From NCBI GenBank assembly GCA_036744835.1, contig DAIOHD010000001.1:736064-800063 (forward strand): DNA of 64,000 bases, read 5' to 3'. How positions within the stretch are numbered: position 1 is the stretch's first letter; every line of letters begins with the position of its first letter. The position numbers and the translations under genes are program-made. Under the pieces are notes generated by a model that was given only the letters and a program-made list of their open reading frames with translations, was not told the origin of the DNA and made no database searches. The DNA comes from Candidatus Magasanikiibacteriota bacterium. GTDB taxonomy: Bacteria > Patescibacteriota > Patescibacteriia > Magasanikbacterales > GWA2-37-8. This document shows, piece after piece, positions 7,833 to 58,180 of this stretch.

Positions 7833-7846
7833 AATATAACTTGACC

Positions 7847-7962
7847 AAACTCAAAACTCAAATGTCAAAAGTCAAAACTTTGGTGTCCCTGCGGGACAAT
7901 TTAATTAGACATCGCGAAGCGATACTTTAGTTTTGAGATTTGCATTTTGAGATTTGAGATTT
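7847..7962. repeat. MITE-like element copy B (~116 bp) with imperfect terminal inverted repeats and internal gtccc..gggac hairpin
   Basis: Aligns along its length with 20487-20584: ...aaaagtcaaaactt(t/c)ggtgtccc[hairpin]gcgaagcgatacNNtagttttgagatttgagattt. Confidence 0.6.
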
Positions 7963-7969
7963 AATTTTT

Positions 7970-8866
7970 ATGTATAACGAAATTTCTTCCAACAAACGTA
8001 AATCCGTCTTTTTGATGATGATATTTATCGCATTTATTATTTTAATTGGCTATGTTTTTGATCTTGCTTATGGCAATCAAAACGGAATTTCCGGAATATT
8101 TATTGCAATTGTTTTTTCTTTGGGGATGACGGCTGTTTCTTATTTTTCTGGTGATAAAATTGCGCTCAGTACTACCGGAGCAAAACTCGTGGCTCATGAT
8201 GACAATAAATATTATTATCATTTAGTAGAAAATCTTTGCATTGCCAGTGGTACCCCGATGCCAAAACTTTATATTATAGAAGATCAAGCGATAAACGCTT
8301 TTGCTACTGGTCGCAAACCCGAAACCGCTTCTATCGCTGTGACTCGCGGAGCATTAGAAAAACTCACCAACGAAGAATTGGAAGGCGTGTTGGCTCACGA
8401 ACTGTCTCATATCAAAAATTACGACATTCGTTTTATGATGTTAGTAGCAGTATTAGTCGGCACTATCGCGATTTTTTCAGATATGATGATACGCTCCACT
8501 TTTTTTCGTAGAGGTAATAATGATAGAAATGGCGGGAGCAATCAATTGGCCGCTGTATTTATGCTTGTCGGAATTATTTTGGCCATACTTTCTCCAATAA
8601 TCGCCGAGCTTATCAAACTAGCAATCTCTCGCCAACGCGAATATCTCGCTGACGCTTCCGGCTCACTTCTAACTCGTTATCCTGAAGGATTGGCTTCTGC
8701 TTTAGAAAAAATATCAAGAGAAAATCGCCCCATGCAAAAAGCATCTTCGGCTACTGCCCATCTTTTCATTGCATCACCGTTTAGCGGTAAAAAAATTTCC
8801 TCTATGTTTTCCACTCACCCGCCGGTAGAAGAGAGAGTAAAAAGATTAAGAATGATGGGAAGTTAA
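7970..8866 (+). CDS. htpX: zinc metalloprotease HtpX (M48)
   Basis: HELSHIKNYD zinc motif, four TM segments, C-terminal HPP..ERV motif. Confidence 0.9.
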   Translation: MYNEISSNKRKSVFLMMIFIAFIILIGYVFDLAYGNQNGISGIFIAIVFSLGMTAVSYFSGDKIALSTTGAKLVAHDDNKYYYHLVENLCIASGTPMPKLYIIEDQAINAFATGRKPETASIAVTRGALEKLTNEELEGVLAHELSHIKNYDIRFMMLVAVLVGTIAIFSDMMIRSTFFRRGNNDRNGGSNQLAAVFMLVGIILAILSPIIAELIKLAISRQREYLADASGSLLTRYPEGLASALEKISRENRPMQKASSATAHLFIASPFSGKKISSMFSTHPPVEERVKRLRMMGS

Positions 8867-8884
8867 AAATTAATTTTAAATAAA

Positions 8885-8920
8885 AAGAAGCAGGTCGATA
8901 AACGACCTGCTTTTATTTTT
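8885..8920. terminator. bidirectional rho-independent terminator (gcaggtcg-ataaa-cgacctgc with A-run and T-run) between htpX and the convergent ankyrin gene
   Basis: 8-bp perfect stem read directly. Confidence 0.6.
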
Positions 8921-9545
8921 TATGAGCTAACTCAACAAGGTAATTAGCGAGTTTCTTACGACCATTGATAAGGTCGAGCGAAAACTCGTAAACTTTTTTC
9001 TTGTCGATTTCGGGGAATTCTCCTTTGAGCCATTTGATGTTACGCTCCAGGAGCTTTTCCACGAAAACTTTATCTCCTCTTAAGGTTGTGTGTCTGGCGG
9101 CATAACACACCAAACCCACGTCCTCTGACGTAATAATTTTCGGATCCACCGCATCTTTGAGAAGCTGATTATACATCCGAACATCGCGATTGATAATTGC
9201 AGCTTCAAACAAAGTTTCACCACCACGATCTTTGAGATTGATATCCAGACCATAACGAAGTAGCAGGCAAAGACCGTAGAAAGTGCCTGTTTTTGAAAAA
9301 ATGTCACAAACCCCAAGGCGTTCATGATAAAAAATTGCATTGGCGCTGACACCCTTAAGCAATAAATCCTCTGCTTTGAAAAGTTCGCCTGCTTTGATGA
9401 GTTCTGCCAACACTGTTTCCTCCTTCGTGCATGGAGTTTTCTTTCTCTCTGAATTTTTCCCGGGGAAAAGACATTGCCAAAGTTTTTTCAACATAGTTGG
9501 CTCCCGTTTGTTGTTTTTCAAAGATCTAACATCTAATTTAAACAT
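8913..9545 (-). CDS. ankyrin-repeat protein
   Basis: Repeats of the form G.T.L..A......LL..G.D.N..D (e.g. GETLFEAAIINRDVRMYNQLLKDAVDP). Local GC visibly higher than flanking genes. Confidence 0.55.
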   Translation of the reverse strand: MFKLDVRSLKNNKREPTMLKKLWQCLFPGKNSERKKTPCTKEETVLAELIKAGELFKAEDLLLKGVSANAIFYHERLGVCDIFSKTGTFYGLCLLLRYGLDINLKDRGGETLFEAAIINRDVRMYNQLLKDAVDPKIITSEDVGLVCYAARHTTLRGDKVFVEKLLERNIKWLKGEFPEIDKKKVYEFSLDLINGRKKLANYLVELAHKK

Positions 9546-9683: not shown

Positions 9684-10208
9684 CTATTTGAAAAAAACTG
9701 CTCTCTTGACGAGGAATGAAGCGAACTTGGAAAAGTTTTCTCTGTATTCCATTGCTTCGATCTCGTCTATGGCGAAACACTTATCCTGTCTCCAGTCAGC
9801 ACCGGCCTGCAAGAGATCAATGACAAAAGATTTGTCACATGTCCCCTGTTTGAAAAGCTTGATAGCCAGACAAAGAGGGCTCATTCCAAAAGAAGTTACG
9901 ATATTAACATCGGCTTTCTTCTCTTTGAGAAGGTAACCCAACAGGTTCTTATCACATTTATAAATAGCAACCTCTAGAATGGTGTGGTCGTATTTATCCT
10001 TGCGATTGATGTTGAGACCACCTTTTTCCGACAGAAGCTTCACCATTTTGTGGGCACTCCCATAAGAAAAGTAATCTTCCAAAGAGTGCTTTTTGTCTGA
10101 AAAAACTGTGTCCGCTCTGGTACCTCCCTGTAAAAGGTCTCTTACTTCGTTGAAATGACGGCTTTTCACCGCAAACCTGAGCTGTTCGCTCTTTTTTCTT
10201 TCTTTCAT
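9684..10208 (-). CDS. ankyrin-repeat protein
   Basis: HTILEVAIYKCDKNLLGYLLKEKKADVNIVTSFGMSPLCLAI and a second ANK-like unit; elevated GC. Confidence 0.55.
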   Translation of the reverse strand: MKERKKSEQLRFAVKSRHFNEVRDLLQGGTRADTVFSDKKHSLEDYFSYGSAHKMVKLLSEKGGLNINRKDKYDHTILEVAIYKCDKNLLGYLLKEKKADVNIVTSFGMSPLCLAIKLFKQGTCDKSFVIDLLQAGADWRQDKCFAIDEIEAMEYRENFSKFASFLVKRAVFFK

Positions 10209-12690: not shown

Positions 12691-15219
12691 ATGCATTTGT
12701 CCGAACGTTTTAGCAACCATCTCAAAAATGTTTTGGTCAAAGCCATACAGTTGGCTACAGAATTAAAACAAAAAGAGGTATCCCCGCTTCATCTTTTGTT
12801 TGCCCTTTTGAAAGAAAAAGGTTCTTTGGCTCATGAAATTTTAACTCGTAATAAAATAAAAGAGTCAGTTTTAGAAAATGCCATTTTAAACATCCCAGGA
12901 ATTGATGGGCAGATTTCCGAACAAATACCAGTTACCAATATCACTTCCCAAGCTCAATTAGCTCCGCTTTCACCCATAGCCAAAGGTATTTTAGAAAAAG
13001 CTTTTCTAATCGCTTCCGAAAATAATCATAATTTTTTGGGCACCGAACATTTACTTTTGTCCATTTTACAAACAAACGATTCCACTGTTACAGAAATATT
13101 GCAACAAAGCAGTGTTCTAAAAAATGATTTGGAAGATCAATTAAAAAATATTTTGATGGGCACTTCTCAGTTTCCAAAAATAAATGAAATATCAGATACT
13201 CTCAATAAACTTTCAGAAAGTTTTGAAGGCGAAGCACCGCTGTCTGAATTTGCCGCAAAAAAAATAAAAAATGGTATAGGACAAAAAAAAGAATCCGCTT
13301 TAGAATTTTTTGCCACTGATTTAACTAATCTTGAAATTCAAAAAAATATTGACCCTGTTATTGGTCGAGAAAAAGAAATTGAACGTTTAGTTCAAATCAT
13401 TTGTCGACGTACCAAAAATAATCCGATTTTACTCGGTGATCCCGGGGTTGGAAAAACAGCCATCATAGAAGGTTTGGCCAAAAAAATAACCGAGGGTTCT
13501 GTGCCGGACTTATTAAAACATAAAAAAATATATGCACTGGATATGGGGCTACTTATCGCCGGCACTATGTATCGAGGTGAATTTGAAGCTAGACTACGTC
13601 AGGTTATAGAGGAAACTCTACAAGATTCCAACATTATTTTATTTATTGATGAATTACATAATATCGTCGGAGTCGGTAGTTCACAAGGCAGTATGGACGC
13701 AGCCAACATTTTGAAACCAGCTTTGGCGCGTGGACAAATTCGTTGTATCGGGTCAACCACTCCAGGAGAATTTAAAAAATTTATTGAAAGTGATGCGGCA
13801 TTAGAAAGACGTTTCCAGCCTATCATTGTCAAAGAACCAAGCGTAGAAGAAACCGTGCAAATACTTTCCGGACTTAAAAATAACTATGAGAAATACCATC
13901 AAGTAAAGATAAGCGAGAGTGCTATAACAGCAGCGGTAAAACTTTCTAATCGTTATATCAATGACAAGTTTCTACCGGATAAAGCTATCGATCTTATTGA
14001 TGAAACCGCTTCAGCCAAAAGACTAAGTTTTGGTATTGATCCAAAAAAAAATCGTTTATGGCAACTAAATCGTAAACTAAATAAAATAATTTTTGACAAA
14101 GAAAAGGCGGCATTGGATAACAATTTTGGTTTGGCCATGACTATGAAAGAAGATGAAATTAAATTGGCACACGAAATAAAATCATTGGAAAAAGAGATTT
14201 CTCAACAAAAAGATAAATATCTTGGAACAGTCACGGAAAAAGATATTTTAAATACTATCGCCAAAATAATCAACACTGAACCGAACGAATTGATTTTGGA
14301 CAATCGCGACCGTTTTGAAAAAATAAAAATCAATTTAAAAAAACAACTAATAGGGCAAGATGAAGTTGTGGATGAAGTGATCAAAACAATAGAAAAAGCA
14401 CAATTGGGTTTAACTGACCCGCAGAAACCGCTAGGATCATTTATGTTTATTGGAATTTCCGGCACCGGTAAAACCGAATTGAGCAAACTCTTGGCCAAAG
14501 AACTTTACCAAAATACCGATTCTCTCATCAAACTTGATATGAGTGAATTTAATGAAAGTTTTGGTGTATCCAAACTACTTGGCTCACCAGCCGGTTATAT
14601 CGGATATAAAGAAACTAACCCATTTACCGATAAGCTAAAAATGAATCCTTATAGCGTAATTTTGTTTGATGAAATAGATAAAGCCCATCGCGATGTTACT
14701 AAACTACTTTTACAATGTTTGGAAAGCGGCTCTATCGCCGACTCGACCGGCAAGAAAATTTCTCTAAAACATGCTATAATAATATTAACTACTTCGATAT
14801 TTACTGCAGAGCTATACAAAGGTGTGGTCGGTTTTGGTGAAAAAAATAAAAATAACGAAGAAGTTAAAACAAAAATAACGGAAAAACTCAAGGAATATTT
14901 TTCTCCAGAACTCATCAACCGCTTAGACAAAATCTGTCTTTTTGGAGAACTGAATCAAAAACAACTGGAAAAAATAGCTCGATTACAAATAGATATTTTT
15001 AATGAACGCTTAAAAAATTATAAAACTAAAGTCACTGCTTCGGAAAAAATAATTAATTTTATTGTAAACCAACTTAAACCAGAAAAATATAATGCTCGCG
15101 AATTACGCGCCTTACTGGAAAATAAGATAGAAAATTTAATGACTGAAATAATATTGAAGGGAAAAATAAAAAAACAATACACTTTAAGATTGCAAAAAGA
15201 AAAATTGGTTATAATCTAA
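12691..15219 (+). CDS. clpC: ATP-dependent Clp chaperone, ClpC/ClpB-family AAA+ ATPase (Clp_N repeats plus two nucleotide-binding domains)
   Basis: Clp_N repeats at N-terminus. D1 Walker A GDPGVGKTAIIEGLA, Walker B ILFIDELH. D2 GISGTGKTEL, ILFDEIDKAH; sensor NARELRA. Confidence 0.85.
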   Translation: MHLSERFSNHLKNVLVKAIQLATELKQKEVSPLHLLFALLKEKGSLAHEILTRNKIKESVLENAILNIPGIDGQISEQIPVTNITSQAQLAPLSPIAKGILEKAFLIASENNHNFLGTEHLLLSILQTNDSTVTEILQQSSVLKNDLEDQLKNILMGTSQFPKINEISDTLNKLSESFEGEAPLSEFAAKKIKNGIGQKKESALEFFATDLTNLEIQKNIDPVIGREKEIERLVQIICRRTKNNPILLGDPGVGKTAIIEGLAKKITEGSVPDLLKHKKIYALDMGLLIAGTMYRGEFEARLRQVIEETLQDSNIILFIDELHNIVGVGSSQGSMDAANILKPALARGQIRCIGSTTPGEFKKFIESDAALERRFQPIIVKEPSVEETVQILSGLKNNYEKYHQVKISESAITAAVKLSNRYINDKFLPDKAIDLIDETASAKRLSFGIDPKKNRLWQLNRKLNKIIFDKEKAALDNNFGLAMTMKEDEIKLAHEIKSLEKEISQQKDKYLGTVTEKDILNTIAKIINTEPNELILDNRDRFEKIKINLKKQLIGQDEVVDEVIKTIEKAQLGLTDPQKPLGSFMFIGISGTGKTELSKLLAKELYQNTDSLIKLDMSEFNESFGVSKLLGSPAGYIGYKETNPFTDKLKMNPYSVILFDEIDKAHRDVTKLLLQCLESGSIADSTGKKISLKHAIIILTTSIFTAELYKGVVGFGEKNKNNEEVKTKITEKLKEYFSPELINRLDKICLFGELNQKQLEKIARLQIDIFNERLKNYKTKVTASEKIINFIVNQLKPEKYNARELRALLENKIENLMTEIILKGKIKKQYTLRLQKEKLVII

Positions 15220-15254: not shown

Positions 15255-15851
15255 ATGGCCGGAGAAAATAAAATGCAACCACTAATCGGAGAAGAATTCC
15301 AGCCAGGTTCTCAAACCGGCACAATTTCTGATTTTGAAAAAAGTCCGGCAACAGCCTACGAGCAAATGTCTGGTACCAGATCAGCTAGCGCTAATAAAAG
15401 ATCTTTGAGAAAAGAATTGGGGTCTGAAAATGAACCTCCAAGAGAAACTCGAAGTATTGATGAAGAAAAACAAAAAGCTGTCGCGGCAAATCTCGCAACT
15501 CGTAAAGCTGAAGCAACCCAAAACAAAAAAGAATCTGGTTCTACAGACCAAATTATGAAACAAGCAGCAACAGCAGCGACTAAAATTCCCGGTGTTGGTT
15601 GGTATATAAAAGTAATAGCCATTATTATTCGTATCTTGAAAATTTTTACTGGGGAACAAATAGCCGGTTTTTTGGCAATCTGGTTCTTGGTGGGCACGGC
15701 TCTGGCTTTTTTAAATATTTTACCGATAGTCGGCACAATACTATTTTTAATAATTCCGCCTTGTGCAGCTCTGCCGCTTACCGCTTTGCTCTGGCCGAAA
15801 ATAAAACCATTTTTGGAAGAAGCCGGAAAAATAACACCTATAAAAAAATAA
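15255..15851 (+). CDS. hypothetical membrane protein (disordered Ser/Thr/Lys-rich N-terminus, C-terminal TM hairpins)
   Basis: C-terminal hydrophobic segments VIAIIIRILKIF..FLAIWFLVGTALAFLNILPIVGTILFLIIPP. Confidence 0.45.
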   Translation: MAGENKMQPLIGEEFQPGSQTGTISDFEKSPATAYEQMSGTRSASANKRSLRKELGSENEPPRETRSIDEEKQKAVAANLATRKAEATQNKKESGSTDQIMKQAATAATKIPGVGWYIKVIAIIIRILKIFTGEQIAGFLAIWFLVGTALAFLNILPIVGTILFLIIPPCAALPLTALLWPKIKPFLEEAGKITPIKK

Positions 15852-15876
15852 TCTTAAAAAAAATTAATAAATTTTT

Positions 15877-17115
15877 ATGTCTGATTCAACTAAAAAAATT
15901 CTCATGATTATCGGCTTGATTTTAATCGCCGCACTTTTGGGTTTTGGTCTTTATTATATGTTTAGCAAAACTCTACCAAAACCGACTATTCCCCCTCCCG
16001 GAGAAACATCTACCACAACCGGGGCAGGTTTTACTCCTTCCGGAGTAAGAATCGTCACTACCACCGGCCCGAATGGGCAAATTATAACAACAACTTTACC
16101 GGTAGCCGGAGTAATTCCTACCACCGGACCTGGTTATTATCAGAGTACAGCGGTCACAAAAATAGTCGACCAAGCAGTCTCTTTTCCAGCTATCAATAAC
16201 ACAAGTGGTGAACTACGTTTTTATAATGAAAATGACGGAAAATTTTATCAAGTTAAAAGTGATGGCACGATGGAACCGCTGTCTGAAAAAGTTTTTTATA
16301 ATGTTTCAGAAACCACCTGGGCCAACAACACAGATAAAGCTGTTTTGGAATTTCCAGACCAAAGTAAAATTATTTATAATTTTGAGAAAGATAAACAATA
16401 TACTATTCCATCTCATTGGGAAGAATTTTCTTTTTCACCAGAAGATGATAAAATTGCCGCTAAAAGTATAGGATATTCTCCTGATAATCGCTGGCTTATA
16501 ACAACCGGCGATGATGGCACCGGAACAACTTTGATTGAACCTATGGGAGAAAATGCTGACAAGGTGACTGTTTCTTGGTCACCTAACCGTCAAGTGGTGG
16601 CTTTTAGTAAAACTGGTGCTGATGATTTGGGCGCTTATAGAAAAGAGATTTTATTAGTTGGACAAAATCAAGAAAATTTTAAATCCATTACTGTTGAAGG
16701 TTTAGGTTTTGATTCACAATGGTCTCCAAACGGGAATAAACTCCTTTATAATATCTATAGTCCAAACAGTGATTTTAAACCGGAACTTTGGATAGTAAAT
16801 TCTTCGGGAGATTATATAGGATCAGGAAGAGAATTTTTAAAAATTAATACTTGGGCTGATAAGTGCACTTTTACCAACGAAAATATACTTTATTGTGCTG
16901 TACCTCAAACATTACCCCAGGGTGCCGGAATCTCTCCGAGTATTGCCAATGGCACTCCGGATGAACTTTACAGAATAGATTTGACTACTGGATTTAAAAC
17001 ACCTATAGACCTAGGCGGGTCTTATTCTATAAAAAATATTTATTATGATAACAATAGCAACAAAGTTATCTTTTCCGATTATAACCAAACCGGTATTTTT
17101 GAAGTTAATCAATAA
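15877..17115 (+). CDS. membrane-anchored TolB-like beta-propeller protein (PD40/WD40-like repeats) with Thr/Pro-rich linker
   Basis: N-terminal TM, TTTG/PTTGP linker, repeated ..WSPN(R/G)..(V/L).. blades (VSWSPNRQVVAFS, QWSPNGNKLLYN). Confidence 0.55.
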   Translation: MSDSTKKILMIIGLILIAALLGFGLYYMFSKTLPKPTIPPPGETSTTTGAGFTPSGVRIVTTTGPNGQIITTTLPVAGVIPTTGPGYYQSTAVTKIVDQAVSFPAINNTSGELRFYNENDGKFYQVKSDGTMEPLSEKVFYNVSETTWANNTDKAVLEFPDQSKIIYNFEKDKQYTIPSHWEEFSFSPEDDKIAAKSIGYSPDNRWLITTGDDGTGTTLIEPMGENADKVTVSWSPNRQVVAFSKTGADDLGAYRKEILLVGQNQENFKSITVEGLGFDSQWSPNGNKLLYNIYSPNSDFKPELWIVNSSGDYIGSGREFLKINTWADKCTFTNENILYCAVPQTLPQGAGISPSIANGTPDELYRIDLTTGFKTPIDLGGSYSIKNIYYDNNSNKVIFSDYNQTGIFEVNQ

Positions 17116-17141
17116 ATTTTAAATAAAAATCGTTTTTTTGT

Positions 17142-17786
17142 ATGAAAAAAATTTTTATAAGTTTAATTATTGTTTTAGTTGGTTTATTTTTGATAACTTT
17201 ATCCATAGTTAAACAAAGTTCTCAAATTACCATAAAACCGATTTCCAAACCTTTGGTTGAAAACAATGCTGTACGATTACCAGTAGATGATAGTGGCCCT
17301 ATTTTTGGCAATCCCGGGTCTCCCATAACGGTCACTGAATTTTTTTCTTTTAATTGTAATGATTGCATCAAAATTCATACAGAATTAGTCAATTTTATAA
17401 ATCAAAACCCCAGTCATGTTCGTCTGATTTCTCAAGGTGTTGCAATAGAAAACTGGTTGGGAAACAAAAATAACTATCCTCTTTTGGCTCTTTATTGCGC
17501 TGAACAACAAAATAAATATTGGGATTTTTTGAATAAATCTATTCAACTAAAAAAAATAGATGAAATAAATATAAAAAATCTGGTTTCTGAAATTAAATTG
17601 AACTCGGATGTTTTTGAAAATTGTCTTAAAGAAAATACCAATATTGCTAAAATTGAAAATCTACAAGATAAATTAAAATCTTTCGGAATTATAGAGACAC
17701 CACTTATTTTTGTTGATAATAAAAAAATTAATTTAACCGATGGTGTTACAATAAGTACTATTTTGAATAGTCTTATCGAAAAATAA
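17142..17786 (+). CDS. DsbA-like thiol:disulfide oxidoreductase (thioredoxin fold, CxxC)
   Basis: Signal/TM anchor then FFSFNCNDCIKIH (CNDC active site) in a thioredoxin-like context. Confidence 0.65.
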   Translation: MKKIFISLIIVLVGLFLITLSIVKQSSQITIKPISKPLVENNAVRLPVDDSGPIFGNPGSPITVTEFFSFNCNDCIKIHTELVNFINQNPSHVRLISQGVAIENWLGNKNNYPLLALYCAEQQNKYWDFLNKSIQLKKIDEINIKNLVSEIKLNSDVFENCLKENTNIAKIENLQDKLKSFGIIETPLIFVDNKKINLTDGVTISTILNSLIEK

Positions 17787-17787
17787 T

Positions 17788-19131
17788 ATGAAAAAAATAA
17801 TTTTATTTTTATTTTTTATAATTTTATTATCCAAACCAACTATAGTTTCTGGTGCTGGCGGAGCTATTTATCAATGTCGCTGTAACGCAAAAGAAGTTGT
17901 TGTAAATTCTGCTGGAATAAGTCAAATGATAAATCTACTAGGTATAACTTTCAAAATGGATGACATAGAAAACCAAAGTATTCTGGGTTGTACTAAAAAA
18001 TTTGTAGAAGAACACCCAAAGGCAATGGACATATCATGTGTTTATGAACCGCTTTTGGAAATGACCGAACTTTCAGATGAATTTAAATTACAAGCGCCTG
18101 ACCTAAAAGTAAGAATACCTGGATTTGACAAATTTAGCGATCCCCCTACCCAATGGGACAAAGAAGGAAACGTTTATCTGCCTTGGATTGGAGAATATAT
18201 TCAAGCTATTTATAATTTTGGTTTAGTTGCTATCAGTATTTTAGCAGTTTTGATGATTATTGTTTCCGGTATCAAAGTGATGATGTCCGGTCTCGGAGGA
18301 GAGAAAAAAGAAGCTTACAAACGTATTGCTCAAGCGGTTATCGGTTTGGCTTTAGCCTGGAGCTCTTATACGATTCTTTTTATTATCAATCCTAATTTAT
18401 TAAAATTAAAAAGTTTGCAAATTCAATTGGTGCAACCGATAGATATCCCCGACGATTATATGCCGGAAATTCCAGACTCTCCCGCCGATGTGCCACCACA
18501 TGATTTAGTTTCTCTTGATGGTTATAATAAATTTCTTGTAACTAATGCTACTAATGAAGCTTTTAAAAAAGTAAAAGAAGAACTCAAAAAAATAGGCGAA
18601 ATCGGCGTTAATAGTGCTTATCGCGGGCCGGGAGAACAATATTCTTTAATGGTTAAACTTTGTGGTTGTCCTAATCCCCCACCACAAAATGCAGTAAAAT
18701 CTGACTGGGAAAAACTTTGTACAAATTATAAAGGGTGCAATGTAGCAATGGTGGTAGAAATAAAAAACGGAATTATGCAAGCGCCGAAAGTATCTCATTT
18801 TTCCGGCCAAGCCCTAGATGCACAAATGTCAAATAAACCCACTACTATACCTTGTAGCGATAGTAGCGACCCCAATATTGTTCTAAGTGATGGGGTGGCT
18901 AAATTTACAAGAGATGGCAATACGTGGAATGTGGGGTATTGCATTTCAAAAGAACAACAACTACTGATAAAAGCCATGTTAAACAACGGTTTCTGTGTTT
19001 TACTTGGAAATTCTAAAAATCTTCGTGAATCTTGGCATTTTCAATATCAAATCTTTAATGATAATTGTGTAGGTAAAGATCATGCTAATATTAAAAAACT
19101 TTATTACGTTCAAAATGACGAAGAAAAATAA
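17788..19131 (+). CDS. secreted fusion protein: Cys-rich T4SS-pilin-like domain (VirB2/TrbC-like hydrophobic hairpin) plus C-terminal M15 (VanY-type) zinc D,D-carboxypeptidase / peptidoglycan hydrolase domain
   Basis: Signal peptide MKKIILFLFFIILLSKPTIVSG. Hairpin AIYNFGLVAISILAVLMIIVSGIKVMMSGLGG..AVIGLALAWSSYTILFIINP. LAS-peptidase motifs SAYRGPGEQ, VSHFSGQALD (SxHxxGxAxD) and ESWH (ExxH). Confidence 0.7.
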   Translation: MKKIILFLFFIILLSKPTIVSGAGGAIYQCRCNAKEVVVNSAGISQMINLLGITFKMDDIENQSILGCTKKFVEEHPKAMDISCVYEPLLEMTELSDEFKLQAPDLKVRIPGFDKFSDPPTQWDKEGNVYLPWIGEYIQAIYNFGLVAISILAVLMIIVSGIKVMMSGLGGEKKEAYKRIAQAVIGLALAWSSYTILFIINPNLLKLKSLQIQLVQPIDIPDDYMPEIPDSPADVPPHDLVSLDGYNKFLVTNATNEAFKKVKEELKKIGEIGVNSAYRGPGEQYSLMVKLCGCPNPPPQNAVKSDWEKLCTNYKGCNVAMVVEIKNGIMQAPKVSHFSGQALDAQMSNKPTTIPCSDSSDPNIVLSDGVAKFTRDGNTWNVGYCISKEQQLLIKAMLNNGFCVLLGNSKNLRESWHFQYQIFNDNCVGKDHANIKKLYYVQNDEEK

Positions 19132-20458
19132 TATTTTTATTTGCTCCAACTGTGGCGCGCAATTCCAAAAATGGGTTGGGCGTTGTTTGGAGTGTGGAAA
19201 GTGGGGTACATTAGTTGAAAGTGAAAAGTTGAAAGTTGAAAGTACGGAAAAAGAAATAAAATATCCAACGATTAAAACTTACTCCTTAAACGAAATAAAA
19301 GGACAAGAAACTCAGAGATTACAAACTGGGATTGGTGAGATGAATAGAGTACTTGGTGGCGGATTGGTACCAGGAAGTTTTATTTTACTTGGTGGAGAAC
19401 CTGGAATTGGTAAAAGTACTATCGCCTTGCAACTAGCTAATGCAATAAAAAATACTATTTATGTTTCTGGCGAAGAATCTATTCAACAAATCAAAATGCG
19501 CGCCGAAAGATTGGGAATAAAAAACAATGACTTGATGTTAGCCAATGAAACTCACGTGGAAAAAATCATTGCCACGCTCAAAGAAAAAAAACCAACCCTT
19601 GCAATCATTGATTCCGCCCAAACTGTTTACTCAGCCGAGTCCGATGGTGAAGCTGGTGGTTTATCCCAAATTCGTGTATGTGCCACCAAAATCATGGAAG
19701 TGGCCAAAACTACTAATACAGCTATTGTTTTGGTTGGTCATGTCACCAAAGATGGTGAAGTGGCTGGGCCAAAAACCCTAGAACACTTAGTTGATACAGT
19801 GCTCTATCTTGAAGGAGACCGCCACCATTTTTATCGTATTTTACGCACAGTAAAAAATCGTTTTGGCAGCACAGACGAAGTCGGAGTTTTCAATATGGCA
19901 CAAAACGGATTAGAAGAAGTCAAAAATCCATCCGCTTCTTTTCTTTCCGAAAGACAAGAAAATTTATCCGGCAATGTTATTACATGTCTCATGGAAGGCA
20001 CTCGTCCAATACTAGTAGAAATTCAAGCTCTTGTCAGTAAAACAGCTTTTGGTTTTCCCGTACGTAAAGCTAGTGGGTTTGAATTAAACAGATTACATGT
20101 GCTAGTAGCAGTATTACAAAAACGTGCAGGCTTAAATCTAGAACAATACGATATTCATCTCAATGTAGTTGGTGGATTAAAAGCTGATGAACCAGCTGCT
20201 GATCTCGCTGCCGCCCTAGCTATTGCCTCTGCATATAAGGATAAACCTCTGGATTTTCGTCTAGCTTCGTTTGGAGAAGTCGGTCTCAACGGCGAAATTC
20301 GACCGGTCCCATTCATAGAAAAAAGAATTAAAGAATGCGAACAGCTCGGGATGAAAATGGTAATAACAAATTTAGGTGCAAAAGATAAAATAAAAACTTC
20401 GGAAAAAATAAAATTGTTTGAAATAAAAAATATTAAAGAGATAATAAAACACACTTAA
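19115..20458 (+). CDS. radA: DNA repair protein RadA (Sms)
   Basis: N-terminal C4 zinc finger CSNCGAQFQKWVGRCLECGKW, RecA-like Walker A GEPGIGKST, KNRFG motif, Lon-like C-terminus. Start placed at MTKKNN (ORF track begins 19082). Confidence 0.9.
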   Translation: MTKKNNIFICSNCGAQFQKWVGRCLECGKWGTLVESEKLKVESTEKEIKYPTIKTYSLNEIKGQETQRLQTGIGEMNRVLGGGLVPGSFILLGGEPGIGKSTIALQLANAIKNTIYVSGEESIQQIKMRAERLGIKNNDLMLANETHVEKIIATLKEKKPTLAIIDSAQTVYSAESDGEAGGLSQIRVCATKIMEVAKTTNTAIVLVGHVTKDGEVAGPKTLEHLVDTVLYLEGDRHHFYRILRTVKNRFGSTDEVGVFNMAQNGLEEVKNPSASFLSERQENLSGNVITCLMEGTRPILVEIQALVSKTAFGFPVRKASGFELNRLHVLVAVLQKRAGLNLEQYDIHLNVVGGLKADEPAADLAAALAIASAYKDKPLDFRLASFGEVGLNGEIRPVPFIEKRIKECEQLGMKMVITNLGAKDKIKTSEKIKLFEIKNIKEIIKHT

Positions 20459-20488
20459 AAAAATCCGCCAAAAGCGGATTTTTTTTAA
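20458..20488. terminator. bidirectional terminator between convergent radA and recG (aaatccgc-caaaa-gcggattt + T8)
   Basis: 8-bp stem, T-run on plus strand, A-run on minus-strand side. Confidence 0.6.
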
Positions 20489-20584
20489 ACTCAAAAGTCA
20501 AAACTTCGGTGTCCCGATTAAATCGGGACGATTTTTATTATAAATATTGCGAAGCGATACAATAGTTTTGAGATTTGAGATTTA
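20487..20584. repeat. MITE-like element copy C
   Basis: aaactcaaaagtcaaaacttcggtgtcccgattaaatcgggacg...gcgaagcgatacaatagttttgagatttgagattta; homologous to 7847-7962. Confidence 0.6.
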
Positions 20585-28591: not shown

Positions 28592-30487
28592 TCACTTGCG
28601 GAGACGAAACACAAACCCGCTGCAGTCATTCCACCTGACGTCGGACTCAGCATAGTCGCGGTTGAGCCACAGACCGCCATCAATACTGCTCAGGTAGAAC
28701 ACGTTCGGGTAGTCATCACGGTCGGAAATTTGTTTCATTCCAATAAAAATTGTTCTTTGAGTTGGGTTTTGCAACCTAAATTGAGGTCCGGTTTCGGGAG
28801 GACAGAGTTCCAAACCAAGTTCTTTGACTTTGGCAAATATTTCATTAGTGGTTCTATTTTCTGTTTTAAGATCTCTTACTTTTAAATGAATCAGGGTTTC
28901 ATTTTCTGCGGTTTTGGAAGTGATAAAATCCGGGGAATTTAGCATGTCTTGTGCATAATCACAAGGGGTAATATTTTGTTTTCTCATTTCTTTTATTAGT
29001 TCGTCTTTGGTTTTTCCGCCGACTTCAATGTTATATCTTCTGATTTTACCTTCGGGAAATTCGGTGTAAATATGTTCGGTTTGAAGAGTTTGAAAAATAT
29101 TGGGAAATAATTCACCAACATAGGCTTTAGTGTTTTCATTTGCTTCATCTTGATTGTGAGCGATTTGATTTGGATCGCAATCAAAAATTATTGACATGTC
29201 TTTTTCTTGGTTTCTACCATCTCTGATTTCTTTTACTCTTGGATCATCTTTATATCCAAAACCATGAATAGGTTGATCTATTTCGTAAAGGAAAGTTAAT
29301 TCGTCTTTATTTAGTTCTTCGTTATTTTGAGTTTTTTTATCTATTTGGGTTAAGAATTTCATGTCCGCAGATTTTTTTACATATTTTTCCGCTCCGGGAA
29401 ATTCACTCATTTTCTTTTGCGCAATGTCAACCATATTACCTTCAAGATTTTGATCATTATCAGCCACTCCTCTAACTTCACCAATATCCTTTCCTTGCAT
29501 CCTGATAGCTATGCGCGGAATGGTCGGTTTACCTTGTTTATCCAAAGTGTAATAAACATAAAAATCACCGCCTTTGAGCTGGGTTTGCGCAGTGCCAAAA
29601 CCTTTGGTACACCAAGCTGTGCCTTTGTTTTGTAGAGATGACCAAAGCGCAGTTGGGTCTGTGTCTTTTTGATATTTTTTCCATTCACCTCTTGTTTCTT
29701 GTCGCATTTCCGGAGTAATCTCTCCGGATTGTTTTATCCCTTCAGCATATTGTTTGGCAAAAGAAAGTTTGGCAAAATTGGCAACTTTTTCTTTAGTAAT
29801 CAGTTGGTCTTCAGGGATATTTTGGAGTGCATTTGCTTTTTGTATTTTTCTAAGCTTTTCAAACATTTCCGGATCTTTTTCCGCCTCAATCATCTGCTCT
29901 ACATAAGCCAAAGCCCCTCTGTCAATATCTGGAAAAAGACGCACTGTACCCGGAGATCGTTTGGTAAATTCTCCTTTATCTTTGTCATAATCTCCCAAAT
30001 CAAGAACATTGCGAAAAGCGTAATATCTAAACCAAGTAGGATATGGTTCATTGGCATCTGAAAGATATGAAATCCAGCCATCCAAACTTTTTTCTACATC
30101 TGTAACGGCAATCTCTCCGCGCTCTGCAAGTTCCTCTTGCCCGTATTGAGCATCAATACCCAAAGTTCTAGCTGCGCGCTCTTCAACTCTGGCCGCATTT
30201 TCAGCCATTTTTTCTTTATTGGGACGAACATATTTTTCCATCACCATTTCTCGAAGTAATGACATGGCTCTGGGGCGGGATTCTCCGTCAACTGTTTTTT
30301 TCTTCTGTTTTTTCTCAGGATCAAGAACTAGGCTTTCCAAACGGTCAAGATAATTTTGAATTGTAGATTCCGGGTCGCCTTTTACTTTTTCGCCAGTTTT
30401 GCTTTCGGTGCGTTTTTTGGCATTCAAAACTTCTTCACTAGTGTGAAGATTGTATTTGTTTTTGAGGAAGTTTGGATTTTCGGACAT
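28592..30487 (-). CDS. large hypothetical protein (~630 aa from MSENPNFLK), compositionally atypical (GC-rich), no recognisable domain
   Basis: Long clean ORF with distinctly higher GC and different codon flavour than neighbours. Start placed at internal M (ORF track 30571). Confidence 0.55.
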   Translation of the reverse strand: MSENPNFLKNKYNLHTSEEVLNAKKRTESKTGEKVKGDPESTIQNYLDRLESLVLDPEKKQKKKTVDGESRPRAMSLLREMVMEKYVRPNKEKMAENAARVEERAARTLGIDAQYGQEELAERGEIAVTDVEKSLDGWISYLSDANEPYPTWFRYYAFRNVLDLGDYDKDKGEFTKRSPGTVRLFPDIDRGALAYVEQMIEAEKDPEMFEKLRKIQKANALQNIPEDQLITKEKVANFAKLSFAKQYAEGIKQSGEITPEMRQETRGEWKKYQKDTDPTALWSSLQNKGTAWCTKGFGTAQTQLKGGDFYVYYTLDKQGKPTIPRIAIRMQGKDIGEVRGVADNDQNLEGNMVDIAQKKMSEFPGAEKYVKKSADMKFLTQIDKKTQNNEELNKDELTFLYEIDQPIHGFGYKDDPRVKEIRDGRNQEKDMSIIFDCDPNQIAHNQDEANENTKAYVGELFPNIFQTLQTEHIYTEFPEGKIRRYNIEVGGKTKDELIKEMRKQNITPCDYAQDMLNSPDFITSKTAENETLIHLKVRDLKTENRTTNEIFAKVKELGLELCPPETGPQFRLQNPTQRTIFIGMKQISDRDDYPNVFYLSSIDGGLWLNRDYAESDVRWNDCSGFVFRLRK

Positions 30488-30538
30488 AGAAAACACTAAT
30501 TTAAAAACACGAATTAACGCAAATAAAAAGTAGAGAAT

Positions 30539-30618
30539 GTCATTCCCGCATAAACAAAAATCCAGTGGCAATTACTAACTTTAACTTTCCTGGATCCCCG
30601 CCTTCGCGGGGATGACAC
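30539..30618. repeat. GTCATT-family element copy 3 (gtcattcccgc ... gcggggatgacac terminal inverted repeat)
   Basis: 11-bp IR; internal ccagtggcaatt resembles cagtgggatt of copies 1 and 2. Confidence 0.45.
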
Positions 30619-56246: not shown

Positions 56247-56275
56247 TTGACAAAAATGCTAAAATGTGCTATAAT
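56247..56275 (+). promoter_or_regulatory. perfect-consensus sigma70 promoter TTGACA-17 bp-TATAAT driving the plus-strand island genes
   Basis: -35 at 56247-56252, -10 at 56270-56275. The track ORF ATG at 56247 lies inside this promoter, so the CDS start is more likely the downstream MEFLKK. Confidence 0.5.
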
Positions 56276-56309
56276 TAAACGTTATATAGCTAAGATTAAA
56301 CAAAAAAAT

Positions 56310-57167
56310 ATGGAATTTTTAAAAAAATCATTTGAAACAATAAAAAATAAAATCAATTCTCAAGAAAAAAAATCCAAAACTTGGGAATCCAAAATCGGCA
56401 ACTTAAGTAAAGAATATTTAAGCAATCTTGAAAACGACTTTACTCAACTAAACGCCGAGGTTTTAAAAACAAAAATAAAATTTCTCGGCAAAACAGAAAG
56501 TGGCGAATCAATATTAACTTCAGGATTTTCCAGAAAAGAATTGGTCTCACCAAAAGAAATCGGGGAAACCGAAGGTGGTGGTGTAATTTATGAACATTCA
56601 CCTCTTTATAATTTTATAAAAGAAGCGGTTGAACTAACAAAAAACTGGCAAGAAAAAATAACTTCTGAAAAATTAACCGACGAAGAAAAAAAGATTTTAA
56701 ACAATACCTTAAAAATAAAAATTCAAAGTTTAAAAAACAGCTTATTTGACATTCGCCATCAAGCAGATCCCGATAAAGCCAAAAAAGATGTTTTAAAGAA
56801 AGCAAAACTATATTTTCACGAAGAAGGTTTAAAAACAAACGAACTAAGTAATATTGATGAATGTATTGCTAAAATTCAAAACTTAGCCGAAACTTATAGT
56901 CCAGAAGAAAGCAGTGATGATTCTATTCGCCAAGCCGTAATTTTGATAGGCAGAATTTCCACTGAAGAAAAAACCGAACCCAAAAAACTGATCTTTGATT
57001 TAAAAAGTATTTTTTCCAATCCAGACAAAAAAGATATTGAAACTTTTTATGAAAAATTGCTTGGTTTTTTTGATACTGTGGAAAATATTCAAAAAAATCA
57101 AACTAGCTCGATTTTAAAAGATGATGAAACTCAAATCATGGGACCACCGCCAGCTTTTAATGCTTAA
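56310..57167 (+). CDS. hypothetical protein (285 aa from MEFLKKSF...), helical, no recognisable domain
   Basis: Long ORF downstream of consensus promoter. Confidence 0.5.
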   Translation: MEFLKKSFETIKNKINSQEKKSKTWESKIGNLSKEYLSNLENDFTQLNAEVLKTKIKFLGKTESGESILTSGFSRKELVSPKEIGETEGGGVIYEHSPLYNFIKEAVELTKNWQEKITSEKLTDEEKKILNNTLKIKIQSLKNSLFDIRHQADPDKAKKDVLKKAKLYFHEEGLKTNELSNIDECIAKIQNLAETYSPEESSDDSIRQAVILIGRISTEEKTEPKKLIFDLKSIFSNPDKKDIETFYEKLLGFFDTVENIQKNQTSSILKDDETQIMGPPPAFNA

Positions 57168-57197
57168 AATTATAAATAATTTAACCTAACAAATTAT

Positions 57198-57740
57198 ATG
57201 GGACTAGAAACCACGGGTTATATCCCGCCGGACTATAAACATTTTAAGACACCGGAAACATCTAAAAAATCTTTAACAAAAAATTCTATGGAAAAAAAAG
57301 TAACTCGCGAAGAAATGAGTGATATTTTGATGGAACGCCCAAAAATTGGAACTGATGAACTCTACAAAATATTAACGGAAGATTTAGACAGAGAAAAAGA
57401 GGAGGAATTAAGAAAAAAAGCAAAAAAAGAAGAGATGGTTGATCAAATTATATTAAACATGAAAGAATATTTAAATTCTCCCGAGCATGCCAAAAAAACC
57501 CAAGAAAATCTGTTTAAAGCCATAAGAGAAGCTATTAAAACCATAGAAGAACAGGGTGAAGAAATAATTAAACTAAAAATTGCCGGCCATAATACAGGAG
57601 CAAAAAAAGCACAGCCTATTCCACGAGAATTTAAAGGTAAAATTTTAGAAGGTACGGATGATGAAGAAGAAACAAAAATAGGAATTAATCCTTTACTTGA
57701 AGAAAATTATAATGAAACTGGAAAAGAAGCTAATTCTTAA
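57198..57740 (+). CDS. hypothetical Lys/Glu-rich coiled-coil protein
   Basis: 180-aa ORF, 30 bp after preceding gene. Confidence 0.45.
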   Translation: MGLETTGYIPPDYKHFKTPETSKKSLTKNSMEKKVTREEMSDILMERPKIGTDELYKILTEDLDREKEEELRKKAKKEEMVDQIILNMKEYLNSPEHAKKTQENLFKAIREAIKTIEEQGEEIIKLKIAGHNTGAKKAQPIPREFKGKILEGTDDEEETKIGINPLLEENYNETGKEANS

Positions 57741-57775
57741 AAAAATTGTAAATTAAAATAAATAATTTTAACTTT

Positions 57776-58180
57776 ATGTTTGAAGGAATGAAAAATTTTT
57801 TTAGTTCACCTCCCGATAAAAAAATCTCTGGTAAAAAAGTAGAGACTATCAGTTCAACTACACGAAAAAGTCAAGAAAAACCGTCTTACAAAAATACCGT
57901 CGGTTATGATGAAAACCTGGATAAAGGAGGAGTAATAATAGATTGGGGAAAAAATACTGATAATAGCAATAGTGGAACCAAAGAAGCCTACAAAGTAATT
58001 CTTGATGAACAAATGAAAGGAACTAACTTCCAAAACCGTCCTGATGCTATTCCTTTCAAAAAAGCTGACCCTAATTTTGTCGGAATGTCCGGAGATACAA
58101 AAACTTATGAAATTAATCCCGATGAAATTGATCTTAAAAAAACAAGAGATAAAATAGACAAGATGCGTCCTGCGGCTTAA
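57776..58180 (+). CDS. hypothetical protein
   Basis: 134-aa ORF, followed by bidirectional terminator. Confidence 0.45.
   Translation: MFEGMKNFFSSPPDKKISGKKVETISSTTRKSQEKPSYKNTVGYDENLDKGGVIIDWGKNTDNSNSGTKEAYKVILDEQMKGTNFQNRPDAIPFKKADPNFVGMSGDTKTYEINPDEIDLKKTRDKIDKMRPAA

Follow-up and report, generated by a model that had tools for sequence, protein, structure and literature searches.

Much of bacterial diversity belongs to the Patescibacteria, whose way of life is attachment to other cells. Two questions about them are how the host envelope is breached and what purpose is served by an essential, relaxase-less type IV secretion system (T4SS) and its unusual VirB2-like pilins (PMC11665869, PMC12102498, PMC10633639). 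One survey reports VirB4 in 2,417 of 3,035 Patescibacteria assemblies and describes the T4SS as near-universal in the phylum; in its supplementary genome table, two Magasanikbacteria rows (class ABY1) end in "Yes", in a column that is taken here as VirB4 presence (PMC12102498). VirB2-like pilins of the Pfam family PF18895 are widespread in Patescibacteria, and most VirB2-bearing genomes have no VirB1 homologue, from which the authors concluded that pilus biogenesis may not require VirB1 (PMC12102498). The T4SS and the pilins are essential for the epibiotic growth of S. epibionticum (PMC10633639). Here we describe a gene for a 447-aa protein (17788-19131, + strand, stop codon included) in a 64,000-nucleotide stretch of the genome of an ultrasmall bacterium, Candidatus Magasanikiibacteriota (contig DAIOHD010000001.1, positions 736,064 to 800,063; hereafter the window). 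The protein, referred to below as the fusion, consists of a signal peptide, a Cys-rich N-domain, a VirB2-type hairpin core, a linker, and a LAS/M15 zinc-peptidase head.

Known wall hydrolases of T4SSs are VirB1 (SLT) in diderms and PrgK (pCF10), TraG (pIP501), CwlT (ICEBs1), and TcpG (pCW3) in monoderms; they possess a single transmembrane (TM) segment or a signal peptide, and their genes lie within the T4SS operon. They are tethered or exported openers of the sacculus for a T4SS, as the fusion would be, and those of monoderms are modular (SLT, CHAP, LytM, NlpC/P60), with the same domain types occurring among the heads of the family described below. They are not pilin-anchored, however, whereas the anchor of the fusion is itself a pilin homologue, and to our knowledge an M15 head is untypical among them. 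The X-Tfe effectors of the Xanthomonas killing T4SS are soluble VirD4 substrates that are recruited via a C-terminal XVIPCD and paired with immunity proteins. They are T4SS-linked peptidoglycan hydrolases, as the fusion would be, in their case directed at the walls of other bacteria, but have no pilin module. In the type VI secretion system (T6SS), "evolved" subunits such as VgrG3 with its lysozyme-like C-terminus, Hcp-ET, and PAAR-toxin fusions join a conserved module to interchangeable C-terminal enzyme cassettes, as do polymorphic toxins, and the family of the fusion has the same layout of a variable C-terminus on a conserved module, with cassette and scaffold phylogenies that disagree. It differs from both in that the module is a T4SS-type pilin, that no adjacent immunity gene was seen, and that nearly all cassettes are wall hydrolases.

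The closest relatives of the core are the PF18895 VirB2/TrbC pilins of Patescibacteria, which share with the fusion the phylum, the signal peptide, the AP..PG/GEY motif, the hairpin, and NPNLL (PMC10633639, PMC12102498). These pilins are small and often arrayed beside virB4, whereas the fusion has 447 aa, stands alone in a housekeeping locus, and adds a 67-aa domain before the core and an enzyme of ~230 aa after it. One high-GC Patescibacteria contig (L034, 7386-10599) carries four consecutive small pilin-core genes, which is the "pilin array" type of the literature, and an ORF nearby looks PilB/GspE-like by eye, judged from its N-terminus only. Known already are the PF18895 pilins of Patescibacteria, the wall hydrolases that accompany T4SSs, and the M15 peptidases. 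Full-text searches of the literature on PF18895/T4SS_pilin and on Patescibacteria pilins and hydrolases gave no description of a pilin module with an interchangeable hydrolase head, nor do the key papers mention one, and the domain-architecture tables of Pfam/InterPro probably list such combinations. A near-identical sibling of the fusion in NCBI (HNU96333.1, "pilin [Candidatus Magasanikbacteria bacterium]") is annotated only as a pilin.

The predicted Sec signal peptide (residues 1-23, 17788-17856; this and all following parts of the fusion on the + strand) was read by eye from a hydrophobic segment at residues 1-24 and comprises MKK, a hydrophobic core, and VSGA. It is followed by a variable Cys-rich N-domain (residues 24-90, 17857-18057) with cysteines at positions 30, 32, 68, and 84, which AlphaFold2 (AF2) models as a beta-sheet with one helix at a predicted local distance difference test score (pLDDT) of ~80. 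The conserved pilin-like core, delimited by Pfam, alignment, and AF2, spans 125 aa (residues 91-215, 18058-18432) and is composed, in this order, of a pre-hairpin motif (…APxLxVRIPGF…PWIGEYI), TM helix 1, the basic loop SGLGGEKKEAYKRIAQ, TM helix 2, and INPNLL. The two hydrophobic segments of the hairpin (residues 137-171 and 180-201; overall ~137-201) are separated by the basic loop, and AF2 models them as helices spanning residues 132-166 and 171-200. An acidic, Pro-rich, and flexible linker (residues 216-234, 18433-18489) connects the core to the head; it was recognised by low confidence (pLDDT <50 at residues 204-234) and by the end of similarity between relatives, which stops where heads are exchanged.

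A signal peptide and a VirB2/TrbC-type hairpin had been proposed from the letters and the translated ORFs alone, and both stand. The fusion matches Pfam T4SS_pilin (PF18895) at residues 133-196 (18184-18375) over model positions 4-67 of 71 with E 1.2e-5; this near-full-length match scores 25.8 bits, under the gathering cutoff of 26.6 bits. Homologues with the same core exceed the cutoff (P0023 with 46.0, P0015 with 30.1, P0009 with 27.5, and P0010 with 27.4 bits, as well as the proteins of loci L025, L031, and L029 with 27.7, 27.1, and 26.8 bits), and 45 of 101 family representatives match PF18895 at E<=1e-3. Relatives also show weak matches to TrbC/VirB2 (PF04956) and to NF045849, a family of "pilin-like conjugal transfer proteins" from integrative and conjugative elements of Mycoplasma. 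On predicted features, the fusion thus has what characterises VirB2/TrbC pilins, i.e., a signal peptide, two hydrophobic helices, and a short positive cytoplasmic loop. It is not a small mature protein made up mainly of the hairpin, given the 67-aa N-domain and the C-domain of ~230 aa.

The core has 25 invariant columns in alignment A2; its invariant residues include the predicted cytoplasmic loop (AYKRIxQ) and, ahead of the hairpin, the IPG/W.G.Y motif. The latter is also found in P0023, a canonical small member of the family, where AP..(I/L)PG … GEY(I/L) directly follows the signal peptide. Because of this position, the fusion embeds a whole mature pilin and not merely two TM helices. According to the positive-inside rule, the topology would be N-out/C-out, which places both flanking domains outside the cytoplasmic membrane, and all 12 cysteines of the fusion fall within these two predicted extracytoplasmic domains. 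A holin-endolysin fusion was considered and rejected on account of the Sec signal, the predicted N-out/C-out topology, the match along the pilin model, and the lack of phage context.

The head (residues 235-447, 18490-19128) is a divergent LAS/M15 zinc peptidase by motifs, profiles, and structure. The three motifs on which the original prediction rested are present, with the ligands intact: SAYRGPGEQ at residues 276-284 (18613-18639; R279, Q284), SHFSGQALD at residues 336-344 (18793-18819; H337, D344), and ESWH at residues 414-417 (19027-19038; E414, H417). They correspond to the SxxR…Q, SxHxxGxAxD, and ExxH motifs of LAS/MEROPS M15 enzymes (VanX, VanY, VanXY, LdcB, and the phage endolysins Ply500 and LysB4), from which the head differs in scoring below every curated hidden Markov model (HMM) threshold, in carrying two Cys-rich insertions, and in being fused to a pilin core. 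None of the Pfam/NCBIfam M15/VanY models (PF02557 VanY, PF01427 Peptidase_M15, PF13539 M15_4, NCBIfam VanX/VanY) matches the fusion of the window even at E<=1. Single-sequence phmmer of the head against the PDB gave only noise, and the profile of the window clade alone found nothing among PDB sequences. Since there is no direct family match, homology was established through relatives and structure.

BLASTP, phmmer, and MAFFT group the head with relatives that bear Pfam VanY/Peptidase_M15 matches. In a comparison of the window-clade profile with such VanY-positive relatives, hhalign returned a probability of 95.4% (E 1.9e-8). The family profile finds VanX (1r44) with E 1.7e-7 and aligns R279, H337, D344, E414, and H417 with the VanX residues R71, H116, D123, E181, and H184, whereby R279 in SAYR corresponds to GYR(71)P of VanX. 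Foldseek matches the AF2 model of the head to VanXYc and VanXYg with probability 1.0, and the modelled head has the LAS fold. R279, Q284, H337, G340, D344, E414, W416, and H417 are invariant in the head alignment, and the zinc ligands and the Glu of H337-x6-D344 and E414-x-x-H417 are invariant in alignments A1 and A3. Four independent lines therefore agree on a predicted LAS/M15 fold and active site, in which the putative metal ligands H337, D344, and H417, the putative general base E414, and the putative substrate-binding R279 are all intact.

The label "D,D-carboxypeptidase" of the original prediction goes further than the evidence. L-Ala-D-Glu endopeptidases and one L,D-carboxypeptidase match the modelled head as well as the D,D-specific enzymes do, all best matches being active enzymes, so D,D-carboxypeptidase activity cannot be asserted and the bond cleaved is not assignable from sequence. 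Two Cys-rich insertions between the motifs carry eight cysteines, which are invariant across the clade, including P0020 at 31% identity, and which probably form structural disulfides. No phage family in PHROGs matches the fusion of the window, so a recent endolysin origin of this head is not detectable.

We compared the fusion with those of 31 species-level loci. Related loci stand in records titled Ca. Magasanikbacteria or "Patescibacteria group". Many records of related metagenome-assembled genomes (MAGs; L004, L006, L011, L013, and others) are titled "uncultured Gammaproteobacteria bacterium"; the titles are probably mislabelled, because in gene content and synteny these records match Ca. 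Magasanikbacteria. In close relatives, the gene order is NUDIX, ClpB, gene 1, propeller, thioredoxin, fusion, RadA, and RecG. Identities at the orthologous locus are 84-93% for RadA, 74-77% for the propeller, and 48-57% for the thioredoxin. For the pilin-like core, identity is 66-87% among proteins with unrelated N- and C-domains, i.e., its conservation is comparable to that of the propeller and above that of the thioredoxin. Recurrence of the fusion in related genomes was thus borne out, with heads that differ: at the orthologous ClpB…RadA locus, the head is a canonical VanY in L001, Amidase_2 in L004 and L005, and of unknown fold in L002. The C-terminal regions of the 31 loci fall into 15 clusters without mutual similarity, among which we recognised Amidase_2, VanY/M15, two SLT groups, M23, and Peptidase_C39_2, and several clusters have no Pfam match.

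Region-wise BLAST against the fusion of the window makes the same point. In L001, L002, L005, P0006, and P0007, the cores are 66-74% identical and the heads are undetectable or marginal, and the N-domain of the window has no detectable similarity to theirs. P0020, in contrast, shares the head type (31% identity over 276 aa, E 2e-26) and has a core of only 34% identity. This incongruence between core and head indicates that heads are exchanged as cassettes on a conserved pilin-like core. In the nearest-relative allele (P0010 type), the head has no Pfam, PHROG, or PDB match, and a by-eye guess that it is CHAP/NlpC-like found no support.

Searched among 1.84 billion entries, the core retrieves 9,064 cluster representatives with E<=1e-3, of which 1,178 remain at E<=1e-10, so that the family, counted in clusters at 50% identity, has at least 1,178 members at the stricter threshold. 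Nearly all of the best 150 matches are proteins of 350-850 aa with an internal core. A Pfam census of the heads in the best 101 family representatives gave VanY (21), SLT (12), Peptidase_M15 (12), Amidase_2 (11), Peptidase_C39_2 (8), Peptidase_M15_4 (4), GDSL (3), and one each of NlpC/P60, glucosaminidase, M23, CHAP, and metallophosphatase, and about a third of the family members have heads without a Pfam match. The Amidase_2 and SLT heads match phage lysis families in PHROGs. Peptidase_C39_2 (8/101), GDSL esterase/lipase (3/101), and metallophosphatase (one) are non-classical heads (e.g., L018, 7884-9059).

Five loci possess tandem genes for pilin-core fusions (L011, 7668-11049; L014, 1266-4123; L021, 1959-5951; L023, 3-2220; L030, 7851-10328), and a frameshift divides the first of the L030 copies into two parts (7845-8303 and 8206-9009). 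In L021, the second copy has an N-terminal part that by eye resembles an endonuclease/exonuclease/phosphatase domain and is a candidate only. A second lineage has the thioredoxin and fusion genes as a pair between rpsB/tsf-type genes and UvrA, without a propeller, and both kinds of locus occur within one MAG, as L017 and L032. The conserved unit is hence thioredoxin plus fusion, as the second lineage keeps this pair without the propeller.

The thioredoxin-fold protein (gene 3; 17142-17786, + strand, 214 aa) is a DsbA-like oxidoreductase that matches Pfam Thioredoxin_4 (E 9.2e-14, 52.4 bits, cutoff 23.2) and scores 23.6 bits against Pfam DSBA, under the cutoff of 25.6. Its CxxC active site is C72-N-D-C75 (17355-17366, + strand), and a hydrophobic/TM segment at residues 1-27 points to a CxxC thioredoxin fold that is exported or anchored. 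Wherever a related locus still includes the upstream region, the gene is the direct 5' neighbour of the fusion, in two genomic contexts. This adjacency in all such loci, including those of the second lineage, supports the link between the fusion and a disulfide oxidoreductase, which had been drawn from the window alone.

The combination of a conserved hairpin with differing wall-cutting enzymes suggests a device at the cell surface that breaches peptidoglycan. On balance, we lean towards a reading in which the pilin-core fusion docks at or joins a T4SS/pilus apparatus and its head opens the peptidoglycan there. The fusion would be exported by Sec, with both globular domains and the 12 cysteines outside the cytoplasmic membrane and the basic inter-helix loop facing the cytoplasm, and the plausibly co-transcribed membrane-anchored DsbA-like enzyme would oxidise its cysteines. 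The core would then act as a whole mature T4SS-type pilin, beyond anchoring, and dock the enzyme at, or build it into, the Patescibacteria T4SS/pilus apparatus encoded elsewhere in the genome. Association of the core with this machinery is proposed because it is a pilin homologue that is complete and strongly conserved, its cytoplasmic loop included. The head would cut peptide stems or cross-links of the peptidoglycan, by which the apparatus may pass the cell wall. The wall concerned could be the bacterium's own, with the fusion as a substitute for VirB1, that of the host cell, or both, and head swapping would either be an adaptation to wall chemistry at the cell-cell interface or mean that any wall-opening enzyme suffices. 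The exchange of heads and the hypervariability of the N-domain speak for a role at the interface or on the host; the short linker, the missing immunity gene, and the housekeeping locus favour a role on the own wall. Display on a pilus, which had been part of the original prediction, may follow from the same core. In solved conjugative pili, both pilin termini face the outside, with the loop between the helices lining the lumen, which is compatible with outward display of a head.

Several observations weigh against such a reading. No VirB4, VirB6, VirB3, or small pilin genes were found in the 64-kb window, T4SS genes are absent within +/-8 kb of ~30 related loci, where the neighbours are housekeeping genes, and the fusion is therefore not encoded with virB3/virB4/virB6 as VirB2/TrbC pilins are. 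A six-frame hmmsearch found no second copy of the pilin core in the window. The fusion stays 0.8 bit short of the PF18895 cutoff, curated M15 models do not recognise its head, and the AF2 model of the whole protein is just moderate (mean pLDDT 67; head mostly 70-90). A head of ~230 aa and an N-domain of ~70 aa per subunit are hard to pack in a VirB2-type helical filament, in which the fusion would be a minor, tip, or base subunit at most. The ~30-residue linker from the membrane hairpin reaches the own wall more easily than that of the host, and no immunity-like gene is adjacent to the fusion, as RadA or UvrA lies directly 3' in most loci. A bolder form of the reading treats the family as "evolved pilins", i.e., subunits, probably minor or tip ones, of a T4SS pilus with interchangeable wall-degrading heads, whose pilus drills through the own wall and then that of the host. 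We put it forward tentatively, as possible though not probable. If true, it would explain the lack of VirB1 in most Patescibacteria with VirB2-like pilins, the essentiality of the T4SS and pilin for epibiotic growth, and the head swaps between lineages as a match to the peptidoglycan chemotype of the host.

The same strictly housekeeping context (ClpB, RadA, and RecG, with LytR-CpsA-Psr nearby), which is vertically inherited, could also point to a membrane-tethered autolysin that acts on the own wall in growth, stem-peptide trimming, or daughter separation and has co-opted the pilin hairpin as a mere anchor. Such an enzyme would be expected to occur, as the fusion usually does, in a single copy per locus, without T4SS genes nearby and without an immunity gene; the short linker would set the head beside the own wall, and VanY/LdcB-type enzymes are typical of wall maturation. 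A defined housekeeping step should, however, not tolerate the swap of a peptidase for an amidase, a lytic transglycosylase, an M23/C39-like enzyme, or a GDSL esterase at the orthologous locus. Moreover, the conservation of the cytoplasmic loop and the pre-hairpin motif goes far beyond the need of a simple anchor, and the extracellular N-domain is hypervariable, as surface proteins engaged in conflict or recognition typically are, so that we regard an autolysin as a rather doubtful, if serious, alternative. A further reading is a polymorphic antibacterial toxin, in which a conserved trafficking module would carry a head that is released, e.g., by cleavage of the linker, and lyses the walls of competitors or hosts, in analogy to polymorphic toxins or to the X-Tfe effectors. 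The incongruent exchange of C-terminal enzymes on a conserved N-terminal module, the tandem duplicates with one decayed copy in some loci, and the resemblance of the Amidase_2 and SLT heads to phage lysis enzymes are in its favour. Yet no immunity gene follows the fusion in most loci, where RadA or UvrA comes directly next, orphan cassettes did not turn up, wall hydrolases predominate among the heads in place of the mix of nucleases, deaminases, and pore-formers of polymorphic toxins, and neither a recognisable processing site nor a trafficking domain of known type was detected, which makes a toxin unlikely.

The failure of every Pfam/NCBIfam M15 model to score the fusion of the window, together with the large Cys-rich insertions between its motifs, would also be expected if the head were a catalytically dead or non-peptidoglycan binding domain of LAS fold, comparable to the hedgehog N-domain, with the protein serving as an adhesin or structural pilin. 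Yet the head keeps all five catalytic or ligand residues, which stay invariant within a clade whose identity falls to 31%, it resembles active enzymes most closely in structure, and sister proteins bear canonical, Pfam-positive hydrolases. We consider a dead head very improbable.

A pilin module that is covalently joined to hydrolases is a concrete candidate for the wall-breaching step of Patescibacteria and for their "missing VirB1", and a pilin-borne hydrolase would be an alternative answer to the absence of VirB1 from VirB2-bearing genomes. The family also offers a natural collection of wall-lytic domains, probably stabilised by disulfides; several have folds that no Pfam family matches, and the heads may be tuned to differing wall chemistries. 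Even if the core were a mere anchor, cassette exchange at a fixed housekeeping locus would be unusual in very small genomes.

The four co-oriented ORFs of the predicted module are all present on the + strand and comprise gene 1 (15255-15851; a 198-aa membrane protein), gene 2 (15877-17115; a 412-aa membrane-anchored beta-propeller), the thioredoxin gene, and the fusion gene, as given in the ORF list. They are separated by gaps of 25, 26, and 1 bp, the last being that between thioredoxin and fusion, and gene 1 starts 35 bp after the end of the ClpB-like gene. As a unit of four, the module held only in part: the pair of thioredoxin and fusion is universal, whereas gene 1 is confined to close relatives and the propeller is conserved within Ca. 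Magasanikbacteria. Upstream lies a ClpB/ClpC-type AAA+ chaperone (12691-15219, + strand; assigned by Pfam and synteny), which is a marker of the conserved housekeeping context and outside the proposed device. Downstream, RadA is encoded on the + strand in an ORF that opens at 19082; the gene probably starts at 19115 (MTKKNN…), as judged by Pfam and the 447-aa orthologues in relatives, and extends to 20458, which gives a protein of the same 447 aa. This start gives an overlap of 17 nt with the fusion gene, and the two genes overlap with either start, which suggests translational coupling with a DNA-repair gene. The terminator scan found terminator-like hairpins solely 3' of RadA (20457-20530), and a promoter scan of the region gave no signal higher than the shuffled background. 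Co-transcription of the four ORFs is plausible, because the genes are tightly packed and terminator-like hairpins occur only after RadA.

The propeller protein consists of a TM helix (residues 3-31), a disordered Thr/Pro/Gly-rich stalk (34-81), and a seven-bladed propeller (93-410), modelled by AF2 with a pLDDT of 84.1. Foldseek hits with E ~1e-8 are 3pe7 (oligogalacturonate lyase), tricorn (1k32), WD40, and DPP-IV propellers, and there are weak WD40/PD40 Pfam matches, with PD40 (PF07676) in some homologues. We found 1062 homologues of 52-90% identity in Ca. Magasanikbacteria, and the gene is syntenic in ~20 species-level genomes. It had been called TolB-like, of which the propeller fold is retained; orthology to TolB was rejected, as the TIGR02800 equivalog yields 14 bits where the cutoff is 343, the TM anchor and stalk replace the TolB N-domain, and no tol/pal genes lie nearby, so that the fold alone is shared.

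Gene 1 evolves fast and has a polar, low-complexity N-terminal half and hydrophobic segments within residues 113-181, and no Pfam or NCBIfam family matches it. Only five homologues were found, all close, with conservation confined to the C-terminal 60%. Its position is occupied by ORFs of 186-198 aa in close relatives and of 341, 649, 827, and 834 aa in distant ones, and the ORFs between ClpB and the propeller gene in L008-L016 and L030 have no detectable similarity to it.

The window is chromosomal, low in GC (~35%), and crowded with housekeeping genes, which include PheST, an RseP-like M50 protease, phosphoglucomutase, NUDIX, ClpB-like, RadA, RecG, LytR-CpsA-Psr, EngA, DprA, TopA, RelA, a ribosomal-protein operon, EF-Tu, and EF-G. 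A T4SS locus within it was looked for and not found; the 659-aa ORF at 28592-30571 (- strand) shows no Walker-type or TM features by eye. This ORF lies between DprA and TopA, is hydrophilic, and matches no Pfam family at E<=1e-5. A stretch of 2 kb (56247-58180, + strand) between a 193-aa minus-strand ORF and EF-G has the lowest GC of the window (28.8%) and a strong A-over-T skew of 0.25; it encodes three consecutive ORFs of 306, 180, and 134 aa, which are highly charged, rich in Lys and Glu, and without TM segments. Two adjoining minus-strand ORFs (8913-9545, 210 aa, and 9684-10208, 174 aa) share, by eye, a similar helical-repeat look.

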